Positions 22,084 through 30,873 of a stretch of DNA of 36,921 nt are shown here, piece after piece. Positions within the stretch are counted from its first letter, which is position 1; each line of letters starts with the position of its first letter. Source of the DNA: Candidatus Eiseniibacteriota bacterium. Lineage in GTDB: Bacteria; Eisenbacteria; RBG-16-71-46; SZUA-252. A program made the position numbers and the translations under genes. The stretch covers positions 1-36,921 of the forward strand of contig JANMQV010000223.1 in assembly GCA_031370645.1 (NCBI GenBank). Direction: 5' to 3'. A model generated the notes under the pieces. It had not been told where the DNA came from and searched no databases. It saw only the letters and a list, made by a program, of their open reading frames with translations.

Positions 22084-23988
22084 ATGCGCCCCGTCGTCAT
22101 CGGAACCGCGGGGCACATCGATCACGGCAAGACCGCACTTGTTCGCCGCCTCACCGGCATCGACACCGACCGGCTGAAGGAGGAGCGCGAGCGCGGCATC
22201 TCCATCGACCTCGGTTTCGCGCACCTGGCGCTCCCCTCGGGGCGCCGGGTGGCGATCGTCGACGTGCCGGGTCACGAACGCTTCGTGAAGAACATGCTCG
22301 CGGGCGCCACCGGCATCGACATCGTGCTCCTCGTCGTCGCCGCCGACGAGGGTGTCATGCCGCAGACGCGCGAGCACCTCGCCATCGTCGAACTGCTCGA
22401 CGTTCGTCGCGGCGTCGTCGCCCTCACCAAGTCGGATCTCGTGGCGCCCGAACTGCTCGACGCGGCTCGCGACGAAGTAGCGTCGCTCCTCGCGCCGGGT
22501 CCTCTCGGCGGCGCGCCGATCGTCCCCGTATCGTCCGTCACGGGCGACGGCATCCCCGCACTACTGGCCGCGCTCGAATCGGCCGTGGCGGCACTCCCCG
22601 AACGCGGCGCCGACGGTCCCGCGCGCCTTCCGGTCGATCGCGTCTTCTCCATCGAAGGAATCGGCACCGTCGTGACCGGCACGCTCTGGAGCGGCGCGAT
22701 CCATCCGGGCGACACGCTCGAACTGCTTCCGAATCGCAGGGAGGTACGCGTTCGTCAAGTGGAGGTGCACGACCAGCCGGTGCCGCAGGTGATCGCGGGG
22801 CAGCGAAGTGCCGTGGCCATTCATGGCGTGAATCGCCAGGACGTCTCGCGCGGCGAGTGGCTCGTGACGCCGGGGCGTTTTCTTGCGACTACAGTCGTGG
22901 ACGTGCGGCTTCGCCTTCTCGGCACGGCCGGACGCACCTTCGAGGACCGAACGCGGGTGCGCGTCCACCTGGGCGCGAGCGAGACCCTGGCGCGCGTCGT
23001 GCTGGTGGAAGGGGCGCCGCTCGAGCCGGGGGAGATCGCGCTCGCGCAACTTCGCCTGGAGGAGCCGGTGGTGGCGATCCCCGGCGACCGCCTCGTCCTT
23101 CGCGCCTATTCGCCGGCGGTGACGATCGCGGGAGCGGTGGTGCTCGACGCGCACGCGGAGAAGCGCGCACGCCTGAGCGACGCCGCGCGGCGGCGACTCG
23201 AGACGTTCGAGAAGGGGACGCTCGCCGAGCGGATCATGGTCCTCGCCGCGGAGGCGGAGGGAGCCGGCGTGAAGGCGGCGGATGCGGCGCTTCGCTTCGC
23301 CGTCTCGCCCGAAGCCGCGACGGAAGCGGCGCGCGCCGCGAAAGGGCTTCGCGCACTCCGCGACGGCCGCTACCTGACCGAAGCCGCGTGGAAGGGAACC
23401 GTGGAGCGGATCTCGGCGGCGGTGGCCCGATACGCGGAGACGCACAAACTAAGAGAGGGAATCGGGAAGGGAGAGTTGAAGAGTCTCCTGGCGCGCGACA
23501 TCGATGGGAGCATCTTCGACGAAGCGCTCGATTCGCTGACCGCCGCGAAATCCCTAGCGGTCCGAGGCGACCGGGTCGCCCTGCCCGACGCCGGACCGGT
23601 CTTGACCCCCGACCAGGCGCGCGCCGTCGCCGAGATGGAGCGACGACTCGGGGCGGGGGGCTACTCGGTCCCCGAGGTGCCCGAACTTCTGAAGGGGGTC
23701 GCCCCGGCCCTCAAGCCGCAGGAGCTGCTGCGGTACCTCCTCGAGTCGGGGAGGGTGGTGAAGATCACGGCCGACTTGATCTACCCGACGGAACGCTGGT
23801 CGGAGCTGGAAGCCAAGGTGCGGCAATACTTTTCAGGAAATCCAGATCTCTCCATGGCGGCCTTCAAGGAACTCTTCCAGGTCTCCCGGAAGTACTCGAT
23901 TCCGATCCTCGAACACCTCGACCGGACGGGCCTGACCCGTCGGCAGGGGGACGTCCGCGTGGCCGGGCCGCGCCTCCGGCAGCCGTAG
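22084..23988 (+). CDS. selB: Selenocysteine-specific translation elongation factor SelB
   Basis: [35 protein letters not shown]-terminal winged-helix [21 protein letters not shown]. Confidence 0.96.
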
Positions 23989-24010
23989 TCCTCCGGTCGC
24001 GCGCCAGTCG

Positions 24011-24039
24011 TTGAAGCCCAGACCCCAATGTGCTATCCT
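24011..24039 (+). promoter_or_regulatory. sigma70 promoter for the propeptide/TPR-bEBP unit
   Basis: TTGAAG-N17-TATCCT with extended -10 TG (24031-24032). Confidence 0.65.
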
Positions 24040-24140
24040 AACCAACGCACGAAGGGCAGCCGCCCCTCGCGCCCAAACCGCCCGAGGTCGCGTCGTGGTC
24101 GCGATCTCCCTCTGGACCTCCATCAGAAGGTGACGCGGAC

Positions 24141-24470
24141 ATGGGCCCTCGAATTCGTTCCCTCCGACTTGCGCTTTCGGCCGCCATGCTCATCGTGCTG
24201 ACCGCGCTTCCCGGCGTTTGGCTTTCCCAGACCCCTGGAAACGCGTTCGGTCCCGCCACGGCATGGGCAGGCGGAACGCCCGATGAGACGCTGAGCCCTC
24301 CGCCGATTCCGCCGAAGAAGGCGAGTGCCCTCGGCAGGCGGTTGGACTTCGGTACCACGACGCCTGGCAGGGCGATCGGCGATCGGATCGAGCGGAAGAC
24401 GCCGATCTCGACGATCGATCGATTCCGGGCGCTCTGGACGATCGTGCGCGCGACCACCCTCAGGATGTAG
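24141..24470 (+). CDS. Small exported protein, candidate signalling propeptide (109 aa)
   Basis: AGAAGG SD-like; basic N-terminus plus hydrophobic core (LALSAAMLIVLTALPGVWL); AWA signal-peptidase-like site before GGTPDETL; Pro-rich linker; amphipathic C-terminal helix. Lies between a promoter and the bEBP gene. Confidence 0.7.
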   Translation: MGPRIRSLRLALSAAMLIVLTALPGVWLSQTPGNAFGPATAWAGGTPDETLSPPPIPPKKASALGRRLDFGTTTPGRAIGDRIERKTPISTIDRFRALWTIVRATTLRM

Positions 24471-24543
24471 AGCCGAAAACCGAGACCACGGGGACGGGAC
24501 GCCGGCGCGAGCCAATGGGACCGCCGGCCTCCAAGGACGAACG

Positions 24544-27015
24544 GTGGACAAGACAACGGCAGCGTTGATCCGGGAACGCGAGGAGGCGGTCACGACCGCC
24601 CGCCTGGCACAGGATGGCGCTCGGCAACTTCAATCGCTCGAAGATCTCGCGGAGATATTTCTGCGCGCCGATTCGTACCTTCCGGCGCTCCAGAATCTCG
24701 AAGAGTGCATTCAGTCGGCCGAGCGGCTCGGTCTCGACGGCGCCCGCATCGCGGCGCTCGAGATCAAGGTGGCCCAGGTCCTCATCGAGAAGGGCGACGC
24801 CGCCGCGGCGCTCCGCCACCTGGCCCGCGCTCGCGCTCGCTCCATCGCCGAACCGAACCCCGAACTCATGGCGCGCGTCTATCTGCAGAACGCCCGCGCG
24901 CTCATCGAACTCTCGCAGTACGAGGAGGCGCTCTCCACCTGCGAGCGCGCTTTCGCCATCTTCAAGGAACGAAATCTCCTCGCCCCGCTCGCCCACACGT
25001 ACAACTGTTTCGGCCGAATCTACTATCGTCTCGGCGAGTTGGACCGCGCGAAGGAGTACTACGAAGCCGCGCTTCATCTCTTCCGCTGGGATCTGAACGA
25101 CGAGGAGGGCGTCATCCGCGCCCACAACAACCTCGGCGTTCTCTATCGTCATCTCTCCGACTGGCGTCAGTCGGTATGGCATCTCCTCCGCTCCATGGAA
25201 TTGAGTCAACGCCTCGGTAACTTCGCTCACCTCGCCGTATCGAACGCCAACCTCGGCAACGTCCACCTGAAAGCCGGCACCTGGGATGAGGCGCGGGAGC
25301 ACTACGATCGCGCGCTGATCGCCTACGTGCAGATCGGCCGCGACGCGGGCGTGGCCCGTATGCGGACCGGCCTCGCGACGATCGCCACCTATCGCCACGA
25401 TTTCGCGGCGGCGGAGGTGCACCTGGCGGCGGCGCACCAGATCACGGCGCGTCTCGGCAACTCGCGCGAAGCGGCGCTCGTTCTCTTCGGGCAGGCTGAA
25501 CTGCAGCACGAGCGCGGCCAGTTGGAAGCGGCGCTTCGCCTCTACGACGAATCGCTGGACGTGGCGCGCGAGATCGCGCCCGAAGGCGACATGGTCGGCG
25601 AACTCCAGCGGAAGCGGGCGGAAGTGCTGGCACTTCGCGGCGATCTTCCGTCGGCCTTGAAGGCCGCGGAGGACGCGCTCCAGCGCGCGAAGCGGCTCGG
25701 CGACCAGTTGGAAGAGGGAGCCGCGCGCCGTGTGCTCGCCGTCCTTCACGCCCAGGACGGGCGGCTGGTGGAGGCCCATACCGAGTCGCGCGAGGCGATC
25801 CGCATTCTCGAGTCGATCCACGAGCGGATGGAGCTGGCTCGCGCCTATCTCGACCTGGCGCGCCGGATGCCCCGCGAGGGAGATCCCGAGCGCCTCCGTG
25901 AAGCGCAGAATCTCGCCTTCAAGGCGATGTACCTCTTCGAGCAACTCGGCATGGAAGACTCCATGCGCGCGGCCGAGACCGCGCTCCGCGAGCTGAACGC
26001 GCCGGCGTGGCTCACGTCGCCGCGCGGCGGACGTCCTTCGCCGCCGCCGATCGCGGCCCAGGCGCAGGAAGTCGCGCGGGCGCACGGTGTCGTGACGGAG
26101 AATCAGCGCACGCTCGACGTGGTGCGTAAGGCGTCCGAACTCCTCGCGACCCCGGCCCGCTGCCTCATCCAGGGCGAGACGGGCGTCGGCAAGAATCTCC
26201 TCGCCTACATGTTCCGTCAGTACGAGATCGAGCGCGGCCACCCGTTCGTGGAAGTGAATTGCACGAGCCTCCCGGGCGACCTGGTCGAGAGCGAACTATT
26301 CGGCTACGTGCGGGGGGCCTTCACGGGAGCCGCCATCTCGAAGCGCGGGATCTTCGAGGAAGCCGACGGCGGGACGATCTTCCTGAACGAAATCGGCGAA
26401 CTGACCGAGCGCACTCAGGTGAAACTGCTCCAAGTATTGGACGACGGTACCTATCGCCGCTTGGGCGAGGTGCGGGCCCGTCGCTTGAACGTCCGCATCA
26501 TCTCCGCCACGAACAAGGATCTCGATACCGCCGTGAAGGCGGGCTGGTTCCGCGCCGACCTCTACTACCGGCTCGGACAGGTCGTGCTCTCGCTTCCGCC
26601 GCTTCGCGAGCGCCGCGAGGACATCCCGCTTCTCATTCGCGGCTTCCTGGATGAACTGGCGGTGCGCGAGGGGCGGACAGTCGTGCTGGCGGAAGACGCG
26701 ATGGAGTACTTGGCGTCGCTGCCGTGGCTCGGCAACATTCGCGAGCTGAAACACAAGATCGAGAGCATCTTCCTCTGCGCGGGGAAGCAGGAGGTGGTCG
26801 ATCGCGCCATGCTCCTGAAGCTTCTCCATCCGGGCGGTTCGGCGCCGGCGTCGGAAGCGCCCTCCACGCGGGGACTCCGCCGGAAGGTCGACATGCTGAA
26901 GCGCGAGGAGGTCCTCGCGGCCCTTTCCCGGAACGGCGGCAACCGCAGCCGCGCCGCACTCGAGTTAGGCATCACCCGCCGGCATCTCATCCGGCTCCTC
27001 AAGCAGATCTACTAG
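24544..27015 (+). CDS. TPR-domain sigma54-dependent transcriptional activator (bEBP; TPR-AAA+-Fis HTH)
   Basis: About 480 aa of TPR repeats (e.g. AHTYNCFGRIY, AHNNLGVLY, NANLGNVH); GETGVGK, ESELFG...GAFTGA, FLNEI, FRADLYYRL, WLGNIREL; HTH NRSRAALELGI. GTG 24544 after AAGGA chosen as start. Confidence 0.93.
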   Translation: MDKTTAALIREREEAVTTARLAQDGARQLQSLEDLAEIFLRADSYLPALQNLEECIQSAERLGLDGARIAALEIKVAQVLIEKGDAAAALRHLARARARSIAEPNPELMARVYLQNARALIELSQYEEALSTCERAFAIFKERNLLAPLAHTYNCFGRIYYRLGELDRAKEYYEAALHLFRWDLNDEEGVIRAHNNLGVLYRHLSDWRQSVWHLLRSMELSQRLGNFAHLAVSNANLGNVHLKAGTWDEAREHYDRALIAYVQIGRDAGVARMRTGLATIATYRHDFAAAEVHLAAAHQITARLGNSREAALVLFGQAELQHERGQLEAALRLYDESLDVAREIAPEGDMVGELQRKRAEVLALRGDLPSALKAAEDALQRAKRLGDQLEEGAARRVLAVLHAQDGRLVEAHTESREAIRILESIHERMELARAYLDLARRMPREGDPERLREAQNLAFKAMYLFEQLGMEDSMRAAETALRELNAPAWLTSPRGGRPSPPPIAAQAQEVARAHGVVTENQRTLDVVRKASELLATPARCLIQGETGVGKNLLAYMFRQYEIERGHPFVEVNCTSLPGDLVESELFGYVRGAFTGAAISKRGIFEEADGGTIFLNEIGELTERTQVKLLQVLDDGTYRRLGEVRARRLNVRIISATNKDLDTAVKAGWFRADLYYRLGQVVLSLPPLRERREDIPLLIRGFLDELAVREGRTVVLAEDAMEYLASLPWLGNIRELKHKIESIFLCAGKQEVVDRAMLLKLLHPGGSAPASEAPSTRGLRRKVDMLKREEVLAALSRNGGNRSRAALELGITRRHLIRLLKQIY

Positions 27016-27516: not shown

Positions 27517-29034
27517 CTAGCTCGACACCTCGCGATCGTCGGCCGTGCCTGTTTCGCCGCCCTTCAGCAGCATGGGGCGGACTAGAAGCTCGCGTTCGCG
27601 TGTCGCCAGGGCCTGCCCCGGCTTACCGCGTCTCGGCTTCGAAACGAACTTTCGCTCGGTATAGATAACTGGGACCCGCGACAGCTTCCGTGCCTTGCTG
27701 AAGTAGGCGGCCGTGGCGGCCGCCTCCTCAAGCGTCCGAGGTTTGGGGACAGCGGTCCGCGTCGGCCGGCGCAGGATCACGTGGGAACCCGGTACCCCCA
27801 CGACGTGGAACCAATAGTCGTGGGGTTGGCTTAGGCGGTGGGTGATCAGGTCGTTCTCGGTGTTGTTCCGACCGACCCAGAGTGTCCACCCATCGCTCGT
27901 GAAAAGCGTCCTTGGCCTGATTGAACGGTGCGCCCCTGGAGATCGGTGCTCTGGACGTTCCGCGCGGGGCGGCGTGGAGGATTGCCGTGAAGAACGGTTC
28001 CCCTGTCGCTCGCCCCGTGCACTTAAATCGAGAGCTGCTGACTTGAAGAACGCGTCGAGAGACGCGAGCGCTTCCTTCGGCGGCAAGTCATAGACGGCGC
28101 GGCGGACGTCGGCGCAAGCCGCGAGATTCTTCCGAGTATCGGCGAGACGACGCATCACCAGCGAGAGACCCCGCTCGCCCTTCTTAGCCCTCTGGAAGAG
28201 CCGCGCCGCGTTGTCCTGAGGGGAAAGGGCCGGGTCCAGCACGAGACGGACCCGGGCACCCGGCGAGTCCGCGTACGGATCGGGGAGTTCGGCGTGGCTC
28301 GCCCCCCTCTGAATGTCTTTGTAGTACGTCAGCAACAGTTCCCCCCGCCGACGGTCGAGGAGACGATCCTCGGCCGCCTTTTTGTCTCCCTCCTGCGCCT
28401 TCTCGCGCCGCGTGAGGATCCGCTCCGACTCCTTGAGGTGCCGGTCGAGCGTGTGGCGGAAGTCGTCCTGGAACGCCTTCTCGATGCGGCCGCGGAACGA
28501 CTCGAGCGCCGCGTCGTCACCCCGCGCGAGGAGCACGATCGCCGCGGGGCGTGCAAGGCTCGACGTGGAAGGCGGCGCTGTGGTCGCGCCATCCGCCGCG
28601 GCCTCTTCCTTCCGATCCAGCGCCCAGATCACGCGGTTCTCCTCCGCCAGGCGAAGCGAGAATGCGATGCGCGGCCCCTCCGCGGAGAGCGACAGGCGAT
28701 GCGTCTCCACGCCGGCTTCGGCGCCGTCTCCCGGCGCCGCGAGCGAGAAGAGAACCTCTCCCGCCATTCCCTCCGTTGCCTCCGCGCGAAGGAGATGCAA
28801 TCCGCGAAGCGGCCTCTCCAGCCCTCCGTAGGGAGTGCCGCGAGGGTCGGGAGAGATCGGCATCTTGTCGGCGAGCGCCAGCGTCGCGCGCTTCGCCTCG
28901 AGGAAGATCCAGATGAAGGCGCGCGGCGTTCCGTCGAACGCGAGCGCGATGGCGCGCGGCCCGAGCGGCACGACGCCGGTGAGGCGCCGGCCTTCCAGGG
29001 AATCGAAGCCGTGTGCCATCGGGCCGCCGCTCAC
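27517..29034 (-). CDS. NFACT/Rqc2-family (RqcH/FbpA-like) protein with divergent N-terminal domain
   Basis: GELL...LDPALSPQDNAARLFQRAKK middle region; NFACT-R motifs VGRNNTENDLIT, WFHV..VPGSHV, AAYFSKAR, VSKPRRGKPG. Start GTG 29034 (coupled) or ATG 29019. Confidence 0.88.
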   Translation of the reverse strand: MSGGPMAHGFDSLEGRRLTGVVPLGPRAIALAFDGTPRAFIWIFLEAKRATLALADKMPISPDPRGTPYGGLERPLRGLHLLRAEATEGMAGEVLFSLAAPGDGAEAGVETHRLSLSAEGPRIAFSLRLAEENRVIWALDRKEEAAADGATTAPPSTSSLARPAAIVLLARGDDAALESFRGRIEKAFQDDFRHTLDRHLKESERILTRREKAQEGDKKAAEDRLLDRRRGELLLTYYKDIQRGASHAELPDPYADSPGARVRLVLDPALSPQDNAARLFQRAKKGERGLSLVMRRLADTRKNLAACADVRRAVYDLPPKEALASLDAFFKSAALDLSARGERQGNRSSRQSSTPPRAERPEHRSPGAHRSIRPRTLFTSDGWTLWVGRNNTENDLITHRLSQPHDYWFHVVGVPGSHVILRRPTRTAVPKPRTLEEAAATAAYFSKARKLSRVPVIYTERKFVSKPRRGKPGQALATRERELLVRPMLLKGGETGTADDREVSS

Positions 29035-30836
29035 CGCGCAGCGCCGGTCGGGGGAGAGGTCTCAGTCCGGAGCGAATCCATCTCCGAAGGAACCCCGAGC
29101 TGGGCGCTCAAGCGCCGGAGATTGTTGATCGCGTCGGGATATCCGGGAAGCGCGTCGAGAGCGCGGCGGTAGGCGATGAGGGCTTCGTCGGTCCGTCCCA
29201 TCTGCTCGAGCACCGCGCCCAAGTTGTTCTCCGCCTGCGCCAGGCTGGGCATCCGTTGGAGCGCGGCTTGGTAGGCGACGGCCGCGGAATCGGGCCTGCC
29301 GGCGTGCGCGTGAAGATTCCCGAGCGCGTACAAGCCGGGCGCGTAGTCGGGGCGGATCGCGGTCAGTTGCCGGACGTGGACGAAGGCGGAGTCGCGCTGA
29401 CCCATTTCGTCCTCGGCCGCGACGAGGTTCAGGAGAAGTTCGCCCGCATGCTCCGGCGCGAGTTCGATGGCGCGGCGATAGTGAATGGCGGCGCCTTCCA
29501 AGTCGCGCTGCTTGTACTGGAATCCTCCGACGATCGCTTGGACGTGCGGCGATTCGGGGGAGTCGCGGAGCATCGATTGGTAAAGCGTCCCCTCGTCGCG
29601 CCAGATCGCGACGCGCGGCCAGAGGACGGCGCCGAACCCTACCGAAACCCCGAAGATCGCCCCCATGAAGATCCCGCCGAACCGGCTGGCGTTCGTCCGC
29701 GCGGCGGGCTTCGACCGGCGGCCGCCGGAGGCGCCGGCGGGCAGGAGGAGCGCCGCGCACGCGAGCGCGATTCCGAGCGTGAGCGCGGCACTCGGAACGA
29801 AAAGGAATCGCTCCGCGACAAGCGCGCCGGAGAGGAGCTTCACGTAGCAAACGGGGAGGAGTGTCGCCACGAAGAGCGCGAGCGGGACGCTCCAGGGCGA
29901 ACGGCTGCGAAGCGTCATCCAGAGCCCCGTCGCGAGAGCGGCAAGGATCAAGACCCCCGCCACGAAACTCACGTCGGGCGACTGAATGGCCGCGATCTCA
30001 TGTCGCGCGGACAGGTGGATCGGCATGAGCAGGAGCGGCACGTAGCGCGCCACGACCGCGACGCTCGTGAGAATCTGCGCCGTCGCTCCCTCCACGGGCG
30101 AGATGCCCGGGATCGGGTTTGACCCGAGCACCATGAATCGCGTGATCAGGTAAGTGGCGACCACCACCACGACAACGCCCGACGCGCGCGCCAGGTCGCG
30201 GCCGGAAATCTTTCGATCCGAGACCCAGAGCGCCAGCAAGAGAATCGGCGCCCCGAAGAGCGCGACTTCCTTCGAGAAGAGCCCCGGCAGAAGAATCGCC
30301 GCCGCCGGCGCGAGTTTCCACGTCGGATTCTGGATCGTCCGTCCGAATCGCACCGCGGCCCAGAGCGCCGCGAAGAGAAAAAGCGCCGCCTGCACGTCGG
30401 TTCGCCCGGAGATGAACGCGACACTCTCCGCGTGCGCCGGATGAAGCGCGAACACCATCGTGCCGAGCGCGGCCGCCAAGGGCCAGCCGGAGAGCTCCCA
30501 CGCGAAGAGCCAGAGAAAGAGACAGGCGGCTGCGTAGAGCAGCACATTCGTGCGGTGAAATCCGCGCGGATTCTCTCCGGAGGAGGCGCGGTCGAGCGCG
30601 AGGGAGTAGAGGACCGCGGGGCGGAAGTAGTTCCGCGTCATCGCCTCGTCCTTCAGGAATTGATCGAACGGTGTTTTCCAAAGCCGCGCCAGGTCCGAGG
30701 GGCCGTGAACGTCCAACGCGGGGCCGATCAAGTACGCGTCGTCCCAAACGAATTGGTAGTCGAGCGTTCGCGCGTACGGCACGACGGCGGCGGCCAGAAT
30801 GAGAAGGGCGAGAAGGAGAAGGAACCAGCGCTTCAT
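29031..30836 (-). CDS. TMTC-like GT-C membrane glycosyltransferase with C-terminal TPRs
   Basis: FVWDD acidic loop after TM1, YFRP, FALHPAHAESVAFISGR, SKE, AERFLFVPS, WRDE..L; multiple TM helices followed by TPR repeats. Confidence 0.85.
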   Translation of the reverse strand: MKRWFLLLLALLILAAAVVPYARTLDYQFVWDDAYLIGPALDVHGPSDLARLWKTPFDQFLKDEAMTRNYFRPAVLYSLALDRASSGENPRGFHRTNVLLYAAACLFLWLFAWELSGWPLAAALGTMVFALHPAHAESVAFISGRTDVQAALFLFAALWAAVRFGRTIQNPTWKLAPAAAILLPGLFSKEVALFGAPILLLALWVSDRKISGRDLARASGVVVVVVATYLITRFMVLGSNPIPGISPVEGATAQILTSVAVVARYVPLLLMPIHLSARHEIAAIQSPDVSFVAGVLILAALATGLWMTLRSRSPWSVPLALFVATLLPVCYVKLLSGALVAERFLFVPSAALTLGIALACAALLLPAGASGGRRSKPAARTNASRFGGIFMGAIFGVSVGFGAVLWPRVAIWRDEGTLYQSMLRDSPESPHVQAIVGGFQYKQRDLEGAAIHYRRAIELAPEHAGELLLNLVAAEDEMGQRDSAFVHVRQLTAIRPDYAPGLYALGNLHAHAGRPDSAAVAYQAALQRMPSLAQAENNLGAVLEQMGRTDEALIAYRRALDALPGYPDAINNLRRLSAQLGVPSEMDSLRTETSPPTGAAR

Positions 30837-30843
30837 GCGGGCC

Positions 30844-30873
30844 ACGTTAGGGAGCGGGCGCCAATGGGGTCAA
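30844..30873 (-). promoter_or_regulatory. sigma70 promoter for leaderless TMTC-like/rqcH-like transcript
   Basis: On the minus strand TTGACC-N18-TAACGT, 7 nt before ATG 30836. Confidence 0.6.

Follow-up and report, generated by a model that had tools for sequence, protein, structure and literature searches.

An open reading frame (ORF) at positions 24141..24470 on the plus strand of contig JANMQV010000223.1 (GenBank assembly GCA_031370645.1, Candidatus Eiseniibacteriota; the whole stretch of 36,921 nucleotides is referred to here as the window) is a genuine protein-coding gene. It encodes a protein of 109 residues and lies directly upstream of a gene for a sigma-54 activator with a tetratricopeptide-repeat (TPR) region. 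This pair is conserved across the uncultured phylum Eisenbacteria, which suggests a signalling system of two genes not described before, in which, with a probability of about one half, the small protein acts as a dedicated, Sec-exported and disordered partner or ligand of the adjacent TPR–AAA+–helix-turn-helix (HTH) activator. An initial annotation, made from the nucleotide sequence, had described a small pre-protein and proposed that two cuts release a short acidic peptide beginning GGTPDETL; the observation was confirmed and the interpretation partly supported, and the interest of the result lies more in a conserved module of two genes than in a predicted octapeptide.

The ORF runs from an ATG start to a TAG stop, and its translation, which reads MGPRIRSLRLALSAAMLIVLTALPGVWLSQTPGNAFGPATAWAGGTPDETLSPPPIPPKK...IDRFRALWTIVRATTLRM from start to end, is identical to that quoted in the initial annotation. 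The window has a GC content of 66%, so that long chance ORFs are common, and a 172-residue antisense ORF uses the same third positions; the GC content of third positions therefore cannot by itself assign the strand, which is settled by homology. A word-indexed search returned 30 homologues with 44–96% identity to the 109-residue protein, 23 of them 105–112 residues long and seven 94–97 residues long and covering 86–90% of the query; where named, they are hypothetical proteins of Candidatus Eisenbacteria. A profile search against 1.84 billion representatives gave 51 matches, 50 of which bear the motif described below and measure about 80–183 residues. The other (P0034, 886 residues with about 13 tandem 68-residue repeats, E value 7e-17 via W-A-A-W-E-G) is a false positive for the family profile. 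Retrieval yielded 49 of the 51, the two others (P0017 and P0028) being already in our 31-sequence alignment (A1), and 48 of these 49 carry [ST]PDE[TS]L. Homologues with as little as 22% identity retain the length and the motifs.

The plus frame is open in all eight same-genus loci that were aligned, and each of two long antisense frames has stops in four of the eight. Among the same loci, the nucleotide differences within WAGGTPDETL all fall at third positions and are synonymous. The notion that the ORF is not a gene at all, being either a chance product of GC-rich DNA or the shadow of a true antisense gene (24038..24556 or 24123..24593, minus strand), could appeal to the third-position phase shared with the 172-residue antisense ORF; it is refuted by frame conservation, synonymous variation and homology and keeps practically no probability. 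The conservation on which the initial annotation had staked its proposal is thus borne out by 30 homologues and 50 true profile matches, and the ORF is under coding selection. No family in Pfam or NCBIfam matches the 109-residue protein, and the nearest clusters in the Protein Atlas are unnamed Eiseniibacteriota proteins (scores 0.84–0.85).

The basic N-terminus, hydrophobic core, A-x-A, acidic motif, spacer and C-terminal helix of the initial annotation were all found as described. Residues 1–43 (24141..24269, plus strand, as are all features below unless stated otherwise) were delimited by hydropathy and the -3/-1 rule and comprise the n-region MGPRIRSLR with a charge of +3, a hydrophobic core (top 19-residue Kyte–Doolittle window of 2.13 at residues 10–28) and a long uncharged c-region that closes with A41-W42-A43, after which comes GGTPDETLSPPPIPPKK. 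An invariant acidic/proline motif, GGTPDETLSPPPIPP, occupies residues 44–58 (24270..24314) according to the alignment and to the ratio of nonsynonymous to synonymous proportions (pN/pS). It is followed by a variable, disordered spacer at residues 59–90 (24315..24410; pN/pS and predicted local distance difference test, pLDDT) and by an aromatic/Arg-rich helix at residues 91–109 (24411..24467; AlphaFold2 and alignment) that ends in L-R-M-COOH.

In alignment A1 the invariant positions are L23, P24, W27, Q30, G33, W42, A43, G44, G45, T46, P47, D48, E49, T50, L51, P53, P54 and P57, together with W99, R103, L107 and R108 of the conserved tail, and the spacer contains no conserved column. A43, P47, D48, E49 and L51 are also invariant in a larger alignment (A2) of 46 sequences, which consists of the window protein, eight of the 30 word-search homologues and 37 of the 49 retrieved profile matches; P0034 was omitted, as were 11 motif-bearing proteins whose N-termini had been wrongly called, too long or too short. 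Pooled pN/pS values, which are uncorrected proportions over related sequences and are to be read relative to one another, are 0.12 for codons 44–58, 0.50 for codons 24–43, 0.58 for codons 1–9 and 0.59 for the tail (96–109), as against 1.23 for the hydrophobic core and 1.21 for the spacer (residues 59–95). The anticipated conservation peak right after AxA, with a variable spacer beyond it, is therefore present, and selection is concentrated in motifs; the uniform conservation that the initial annotation had named as contrary to its proposal was not found. Total length is held in a narrow band (97–114 residues in family loci with checked starts). AlphaFold2, run with 31 sequences, gave helices at residues 3–22 and 91–108 and disorder elsewhere (mean pLDDT of 57.9, with values below 50 at residues 59–82 and 84–88), in keeping with the earlier view of a conserved small pre-protein without an enzyme fold.

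Signal peptidase I substrates have small residues at -3 and -1 and a c-region of about 3–10 residues. Export was assessed purely by residue rules of this kind, applied to 65 different sequences of the family (A2 with its 46 rows, plus 23 proteins read from loci, with duplicates removed). The net charge ahead of the core ranges from +1 to +5, and the median hydropathy of the best 10-residue window is 2.98. The -1 residue, which precedes the G/S run, is Ala in all 65 sequences; Ala (48), Val (7), Ser (4) or Cys (2) is found at -3, and the four ambiguous cases, which have Trp or His at this position in WAA or HAA, conform once the cut is shifted back by one residue. The +1 residue is Gly, Ser, Asn or Thr, and never Pro. 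The basic n-region, the h-region, the small -3 and -1 residues and the absence of Pro at +1 thus agree, by rule, with cleavage by signal peptidase I throughout the family, while the c-region of the window family exceeds the usual length. A natural variant (P0073) lacks the long c-region, and its LIAWA, joined across the predicted cut to AGSPDETL, stands after a normal core to give a canonical 26-residue signal peptide. Retention of the -3/-1 rules while nearby residues drift argues for cleavage, and residues 1–43 are predicted to form a Sec signal peptide or, alternatively, a signal anchor.

The proposed second cut fared less well. A PPPIPP/KK boundary had been suggested, yet only 18 of the 65 sequences contain KK, and 29 have a dibasic pair of any kind within 14 residues; past the motif, Pro is found at +2 in 63 and PPP in 32, so that the boundary is a feature of close relatives only. 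The motif would be placed at the mature N-terminus in the window family, where it stands right after AxA, but not in the sister families described below, in which G-D-P-D-x-P lies 15–30 residues past the predicted cleavage; it is therefore not a general property. A C-terminal helix is indeed predicted (residues 91–108), but its claimed amphipathicity is not apparent, the hydrophobic moment of the last 16 residues not exceeding that of shuffled sequences (median z of 0.33 over the 65 sequences). The penultimate residue is Arg in 62 of the 65 and the last is Phe, Ile, Met, Tyr, Leu or Val in 58, and a helix rich in aromatic residues and Arg that closes with R-hydrophobic-COOH describes the tail better. 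The motif itself is invariant across the whole family, unlike diversified pheromones, and the proposal of a short peptide pheromone is unproven. Likenesses to a TonB box, PEP-CTERM, a glycosylation sequon and the C-terminal Y-x-F of outer-membrane proteins were dropped or kept as leads only, their spacing or context being unfit.

The neighbouring gene (24544..27015) encodes an 823-residue sigma-54 enhancer-binding protein according to Pfam and NCBIfam, with a GTG start placed by the eight-locus alignment. Its TPR region covers about residues 1–500 (24544–26043; Pfam), with matches to TPR_12 (2.2e-40), TPR_MalT (5e-18) and other TPR families at residues of about 50–480, and is followed by Sigma54_activat (517–681, 1.1e-56), the AAA lid (688–763) and a Fis-type HTH (HTH_8, 787–820). 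The NCBIfam matches lie below the cut-offs of named regulators. The activator has no segment resembling a transmembrane helix (maximum 19-residue hydropathy of 1.09, compared with 2.13 in the small protein) and is cytoplasmic as judged by hydropathy. A search with a profile of the TPR region against solved structures matched Pins/LGN (about 1e-32 to 1e-25), kinesin light chain (about 1e-19), RapF (3e-10) and SPINDLY/OGT. Designed consensus repeats excepted, these are TPR superhelices that grip extended peptides in their groove, which, as a lead only, fits a ligand in the form of a linear motif of a disordered protein. A complex prediction for TPR residues 1–500 with the full small protein scored 0.00, was made without controls and speaks neither for nor against binding. 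The window's genome contains rpoN and one Opp/Dpp-type binding protein (PF00496), the latter not being diagnostic of the release, re-import and TPR binding of a short peptide.

The small gene, as detected with a profile of alignment A2, is present as one copy in each of 32 genomes of its family (four genera, the window's genome included) and gave no match in 17 further families of the class (89 genomes). Homologues of the activator TPR region were found in all 121 class genomes, with at least 68% identity inside the family and at most 37% outside; one genome of the 121 (G069), which contributes to both tallies, is flagged as unpublished. The order selB, small gene, activator is kept in all 21 family loci examined, and a gene for an NFACT-type protein lies beyond the activator in eight of 13 cross-genus loci, the other five having short DNA there or no match.

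Outside the family, 14 loci around activator homologues of roughly 820 residues were sampled. None of the 14 has a SelB match, and the upstream neighbour, from ORF translations read by eye, is cysS-like or PfkB-like. In 13 of them a same-strand ORF of 105–124 residues ends 11–82 nucleotides before the activator homologue, and it encodes a canonical signal peptide closing in x-F-A with the cut before D, an acidic Gly/Pro-rich stretch, an invariant G-D-P-D-x-P, a spacer and a helix mostly ending L-R-F. A second sample of 79 loci from species-representative genomes, which overlaps the first and includes three loci with too little upstream DNA, showed the small ORF in all 34 window-type loci that could be tested and, for the other type, in 41 of the 42 that could. 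In the sole miss (L087, 1885–2389) the gene is spread over two frames, the N-terminal part ending at 2139 and the C-terminal part extending to 2389, so that this copy is frameshifted or mis-assembled, perhaps through an assembly indel error. Flanking genes differ between families while the small ORF and the activator stay together, so that the pairing has outlived the wider synteny. The link to the TPR protein made in the initial annotation is strongly supported by this adjacency across different genomic contexts.

The sister-family proteins (49 distinct sequences of 97–124 residues) are all unannotated hypothetical proteins, and neither they nor the window family are covered by a Pfam or NCBIfam family or by a named cluster. 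Their n-region, M-x-R-F-x-x-N-R-x-W-x-x-I-L-A-L, is unusually conserved for a signal peptide, and GDPD-x-P, a G-D before the tail and the R-F end are also shared. The mid-chain motifs of the two groups have P-D alone in common, and in an hhalign comparison of the groups the last 19 columns align end-to-end (88.8%, E value 2.5e-6). We take the two groups to be one architectural family and probably homologous. In the sister loci (L034–L047 and L084–L126), the ORF lies about 100–450 nucleotides upstream of the activator homologue. The window family has [S/T]-P-D-E (24276–24287) where the sister families have D-P-D, with Ser or Thr in place of the Asp that precedes Pro. As pure speculation, this is the pattern that would be expected if a modifiable residue had replaced a constitutively acidic one.

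If the small protein is the exported partner of the activator, then a sigma-70-like promoter of its own and a structured leader would drive the small gene, on a transcript probably shared with the activator. The basic N-tail and hydrophobic core would deliver the protein to the Sec translocon and signal peptidase I would cut after A-W-A, so that a disordered chain of some 66 residues would remain beyond the cytoplasmic membrane. Its constrained parts would be GG-[ST]PDETL-x-PP at the new N-terminus and the C-terminal helix ending R-hydrophobic-COOH. The TPR superhelix could read one of these motifs, or else the cytoplasmic N-tail or signal-peptide remnant, and the module would thereby link the transcription of a putative sigma-54-dependent regulon to what becomes of the small protein in export, in the envelope or outside the cell. 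A more specific version, in which a linear motif of the exported disordered protein, or a signal-peptide remnant, is the direct ligand of the TPR sensor of an enhancer-binding protein in a phylum-wide core circuit, is put forward only tentatively.

Several points weigh against this reading, in which export, cleavage and binding are inferred. In the window family the AxA and the hydrophobic core are a median of 22 residues apart (range 7–26), an unusually long distance for signal peptidase I, and the protein may stay anchored in the membrane. A periplasmic product would need re-import or a membrane relay to meet a cytoplasmic TPR region, and none was identified; control of the small gene by the activator, or the reverse, is hypothetical, and the small gene has no sigma-54 promoter match nearby. 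Adjacency inside the family is uninformative alone, since the whole selB-to-NFACT neighbourhood is syntenic, and counts of loci overstate the number of independent retentions, since kin are not independent. The topological difficulty could be escaped by re-import of a fragment, as in RRNPP systems, by recognition of the cytoplasmic N-tail of an anchor or remnant, or by sensing of the unexported precursor, and the data do not choose among these.

The pheromone originally envisaged, in which signal peptidase and a second protease free an acidic GGTPDETL... peptide of 5–10 residues that is re-imported and bound by the TPR region as an RRNPP- or Agr-like quorum signal, would account for a conservation peak placed exactly after AxA, and four of the five features of the RRNPP signature are present or nearly so (PMC10075063, as far as its passages go). 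The Opp/Dpp-type binding protein in the genome and RapF among the TPR matches also suit it. Quorum systems are usually patchy and diversified, however, whereas this gene belongs to the core, is present once in 32 of 32 genomes and has a motif that is invariant family-wide. The KK boundary is poorly kept; the sister-family motif lies within the mature chain; the N-tail and the C-terminal helix are conserved as well, although a mere pro-region would not need them; no AgrB is found; and the receptor is far longer than those of RRNPP systems. A classical pheromone is disfavoured because the motif does not vary, the gene belongs to the core, three separate segments are conserved and GDPD lies internally in the sister families; we regard it as unlikely. 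Alternatively, the signal may remain uncleaved, making a bitopic protein whose N-tail tethers or inhibits the TPR activator, much as PspB/C and PspA act on PspF, with the outside motifs sensing an envelope cue. Such an anchor would solve the topology problem. The 19-residue window at 2.13 could span the membrane, the AxA is distant from it, and the n-region is unusually conserved both in the sister families (M-x-R-F-x-x-N-R-x-W) and in the window family (M-G-x-R-x-R-S-L-R, with the pN/pS of 0.58 given above). Against it stand the universal Ala at -1 and the small residue at -3, which are needless in an anchor, the canonical short c-regions of the sister proteins and the length of the N-tail, merely about nine residues; a pure anchor is disfavoured by the invariant AxA, and we consider the idea to have a limited chance, of less than one in five.

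Could the small ORF instead encode a nascent chain that monitors secretion, as do SecM, VemP and MifM, its C-terminal segment stalling the ribosome until the translocon pulls and so tuning translation of the activator? The supposed likeness lies in the signal peptide, the spacer of kept length and free sequence, the conserved W/R-rich extreme C-terminus and the position just upstream. The spacer between the two genes is nevertheless less structured than shuffled sequences (z of +1.49), and the gap varies from 11 to 82 nucleotides; at 11 nucleotides the ribosome-binding site of the activator would lie beneath a stalled ribosome. Stop codons are mixed in the window family (TAG 19, TGA 16 and TAA 5) and in the sister families (TAG 31, TGA 12 and TAA 5; TAG makes up 37% in the genome), and the invariant PDETL would be left unexplained, all of which makes arrest very improbable. 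It is also conceivable that the product is an independent periplasmic or envelope protein unrelated to the input of the activator, their adjacency reflecting co-transcription or control by the activator. In its favour, binding to the activator is hypothetical and the neighbourhood is wholly syntenic inside the family. Against it, the two genes stay paired in other families at 41 of the 42 loci that could be tested, despite differing flanks, and gaps are short, down to 11 nucleotides; control by the activator finds no sigma-54 promoter match upstream of the small gene. An independent function is on balance improbable, and a dedicated partner of the activator remains our preferred reading.

The RRNPP signature comprises a propeptide of 10–100 residues, Sec secretion, a receptor of 250–500 residues, TPRs and direct gene neighbours (from the passages of PMC10075063 consulted). 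With 109 residues (97–114 in the family and 97–124 in the sister families), the small protein is at or just above the size limit. Sec secretion is indicated by rule only, with Ala at -1 in 65 of 65 sequences and a small -3 residue but a median c-region of 22; the genes are adjacent, with a gap of 73 nucleotides, and TPRs are present, while the receptor has 823 residues. The pair resembles the RRNPP(A) pairs of Firmicutes and phages (Rap–Phr, NprR–NprX, PlcR–PapR and AimR–AimP) in that a gene for a Sec-type pre-protein adjoins one for a cytoplasmic TPR regulator, in the short conserved motifs and free spacer of the propeptide, and in the match of RapF to the TPR region. It differs in that the receptor is a sigma-54 AAA+ activator rather than a 250–500-residue HTH protein or phosphatase, in that the host lies outside Firmicutes, and in that the small gene belongs to the core in one copy and encodes an invariant motif and three conserved segments, where RRNPP systems are patchy with diversified pherotypes. 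At most, the pair works like an RRNPP pair, and it was not filed as a member.

An analogy with AgrD had also been drawn. AgrD possesses an N-terminal helix and no Sec signal peptide, and needs AgrB and a Cys or Ser residue to form its thiolactone. A short precursor, a proposed membrane-binding helix and a short conserved core with dispensable flanks are common to both, but the window protein has its helix at the C-terminus, an N-terminal export signal, no conserved Cys and no invariant Ser, and AgrB (PF04647) gave no match in the window's genome (95% complete); the analogy fails on these points. In the Psp system, PspF is held by PspA and signalled to by the small membrane proteins PspB/C, with membrane association mediated by helices. 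The likeness lies in a sigma-54 enhancer-binding protein that depends on a small envelope partner and not on phosphorylation or a small molecule; PspF lacks a sensor domain, however, whereas the window activator carries a 500-residue TPR sensor, and no PspA-like protein is found here (the small protein has no Pfam match). The SecM–secA, VemP–secDF2 and MifM–yidC2 loci likewise have, upstream of the would-be target gene, an ORF whose product bears an export signal and is conserved at its extreme C-terminus. In contrast, the present system has no structured spacer switch, gaps that vary from 11 to 82 nucleotides between loci, a downstream transcription factor rather than a part of the translocon, and an extra mid-chain motif.

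Sigma-54 activators are switched by phosphorylation, by small molecules or by partner proteins. If the proposed pairing is true, a TPR sensor with a dedicated exported mini-protein would represent a new type of input for this class, and the activator would be the first sigma-54 activator gated by a peptide or protein, reporting export or envelope state or cell density in a phylum outside Firmicutes. Direct neighbours encoding a secreted propeptide and a cytoplasmic TPR receptor are described for Firmicutes and their mobile elements in the abstracts consulted and in the passages of PMC10075063. The propeptide–TPR principle would be widened by an example from a different phylum in which the receptor is joined to a sigma-54 engine and the pair is retained phylum-wide among the core genes. 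In listings and abstracts, together with those passages (PMC10075063), no TPR-containing sigma-54 activator with a secreted partner is described, and listings and abstracts hold no account of sigma-54 in Eisenbacteria. Two unannotated families are named here, and they offer three short, synthesizable motifs for binding tests.

Upstream of the small gene, the leader alignments suggest a sigma-70-type promoter (24011..24039), with TTGAAG (24011–24016), a 17-nucleotide spacer and TG-n-TATCCT (24031–24039; TGcTATCCT in the window), the TTG and T-A-T columns of which are kept across four genera. A strict scan for the sigma-70 consensus at 23850–24700 returned no promoter, the 8/12 matches of the candidate being below threshold. 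The sigma-54 -24/-12 pattern with up to two mismatches occurs nine times in the window, compared with 8.5 expected, and nowhere near the small gene. A 5' leader at 24047..24140 contains two predicted hairpins (24047–24072, and arms 24084–24092 and 24100–24108), the second of which shows G-U/G-C exchanges within the genus, and a Shine–Dalgarno sequence, GAAGGTG (24126–24132), that lies eight nucleotides before the ATG and is nearly invariant over 23 loci. Over eight same-genus loci, positions -72 to -1 have a mean pairwise identity of 95.4%, compared with 63% at third positions of the ORF. In predicted folds the Shine–Dalgarno sequence and the AUG pair with C-rich stretches upstream. The z score of the leader fold is -1.73, and in most loci single-sequence folds are not significantly more stable than those of shuffled sequences. 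RNAalifold applied to a cross-genus MAFFT alignment of the leader gave no consensus structure, and Rfam gave no match at 23800–24700. The leader is, from its sequence, a candidate translational control element.

No terminator-like site was found in the 73-nucleotide spacer between the small gene and the activator, and a gap of this size without a terminator makes co-transcription likely. The identity of the stop codon as a control signal at the stage of termination was considered and rejected, its usage being mixed.

The genes rho, prfA, prmC, murA and selB (22084–23988) precede the small gene in that order. Convergent to the activator, on the minus strand, are genes for an NFACT-type (RqcH-like) protein (27517–29034) and a further TPR protein (29031–30845). 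Many class genomes contain a second TPR open frame of about 1030–1120 residues, with 27–31% identity in the TPR region (for example G000:C74:6930-8261), and these longer proteins look like a second family. Activator copies 69–82% identical to that of the window also occur in eight loci (L053, L064, L065, L070, L073, L074, L077 and L079) labelled Acidobacteriota, Binatia, Latescibacterota, Hyphomicrobiales, Limnocylindrales, Dormiibacterota, Bacteroidota or Omnitrophota, and such foreign labels look like mis-assigned bins rather than gene transfer.

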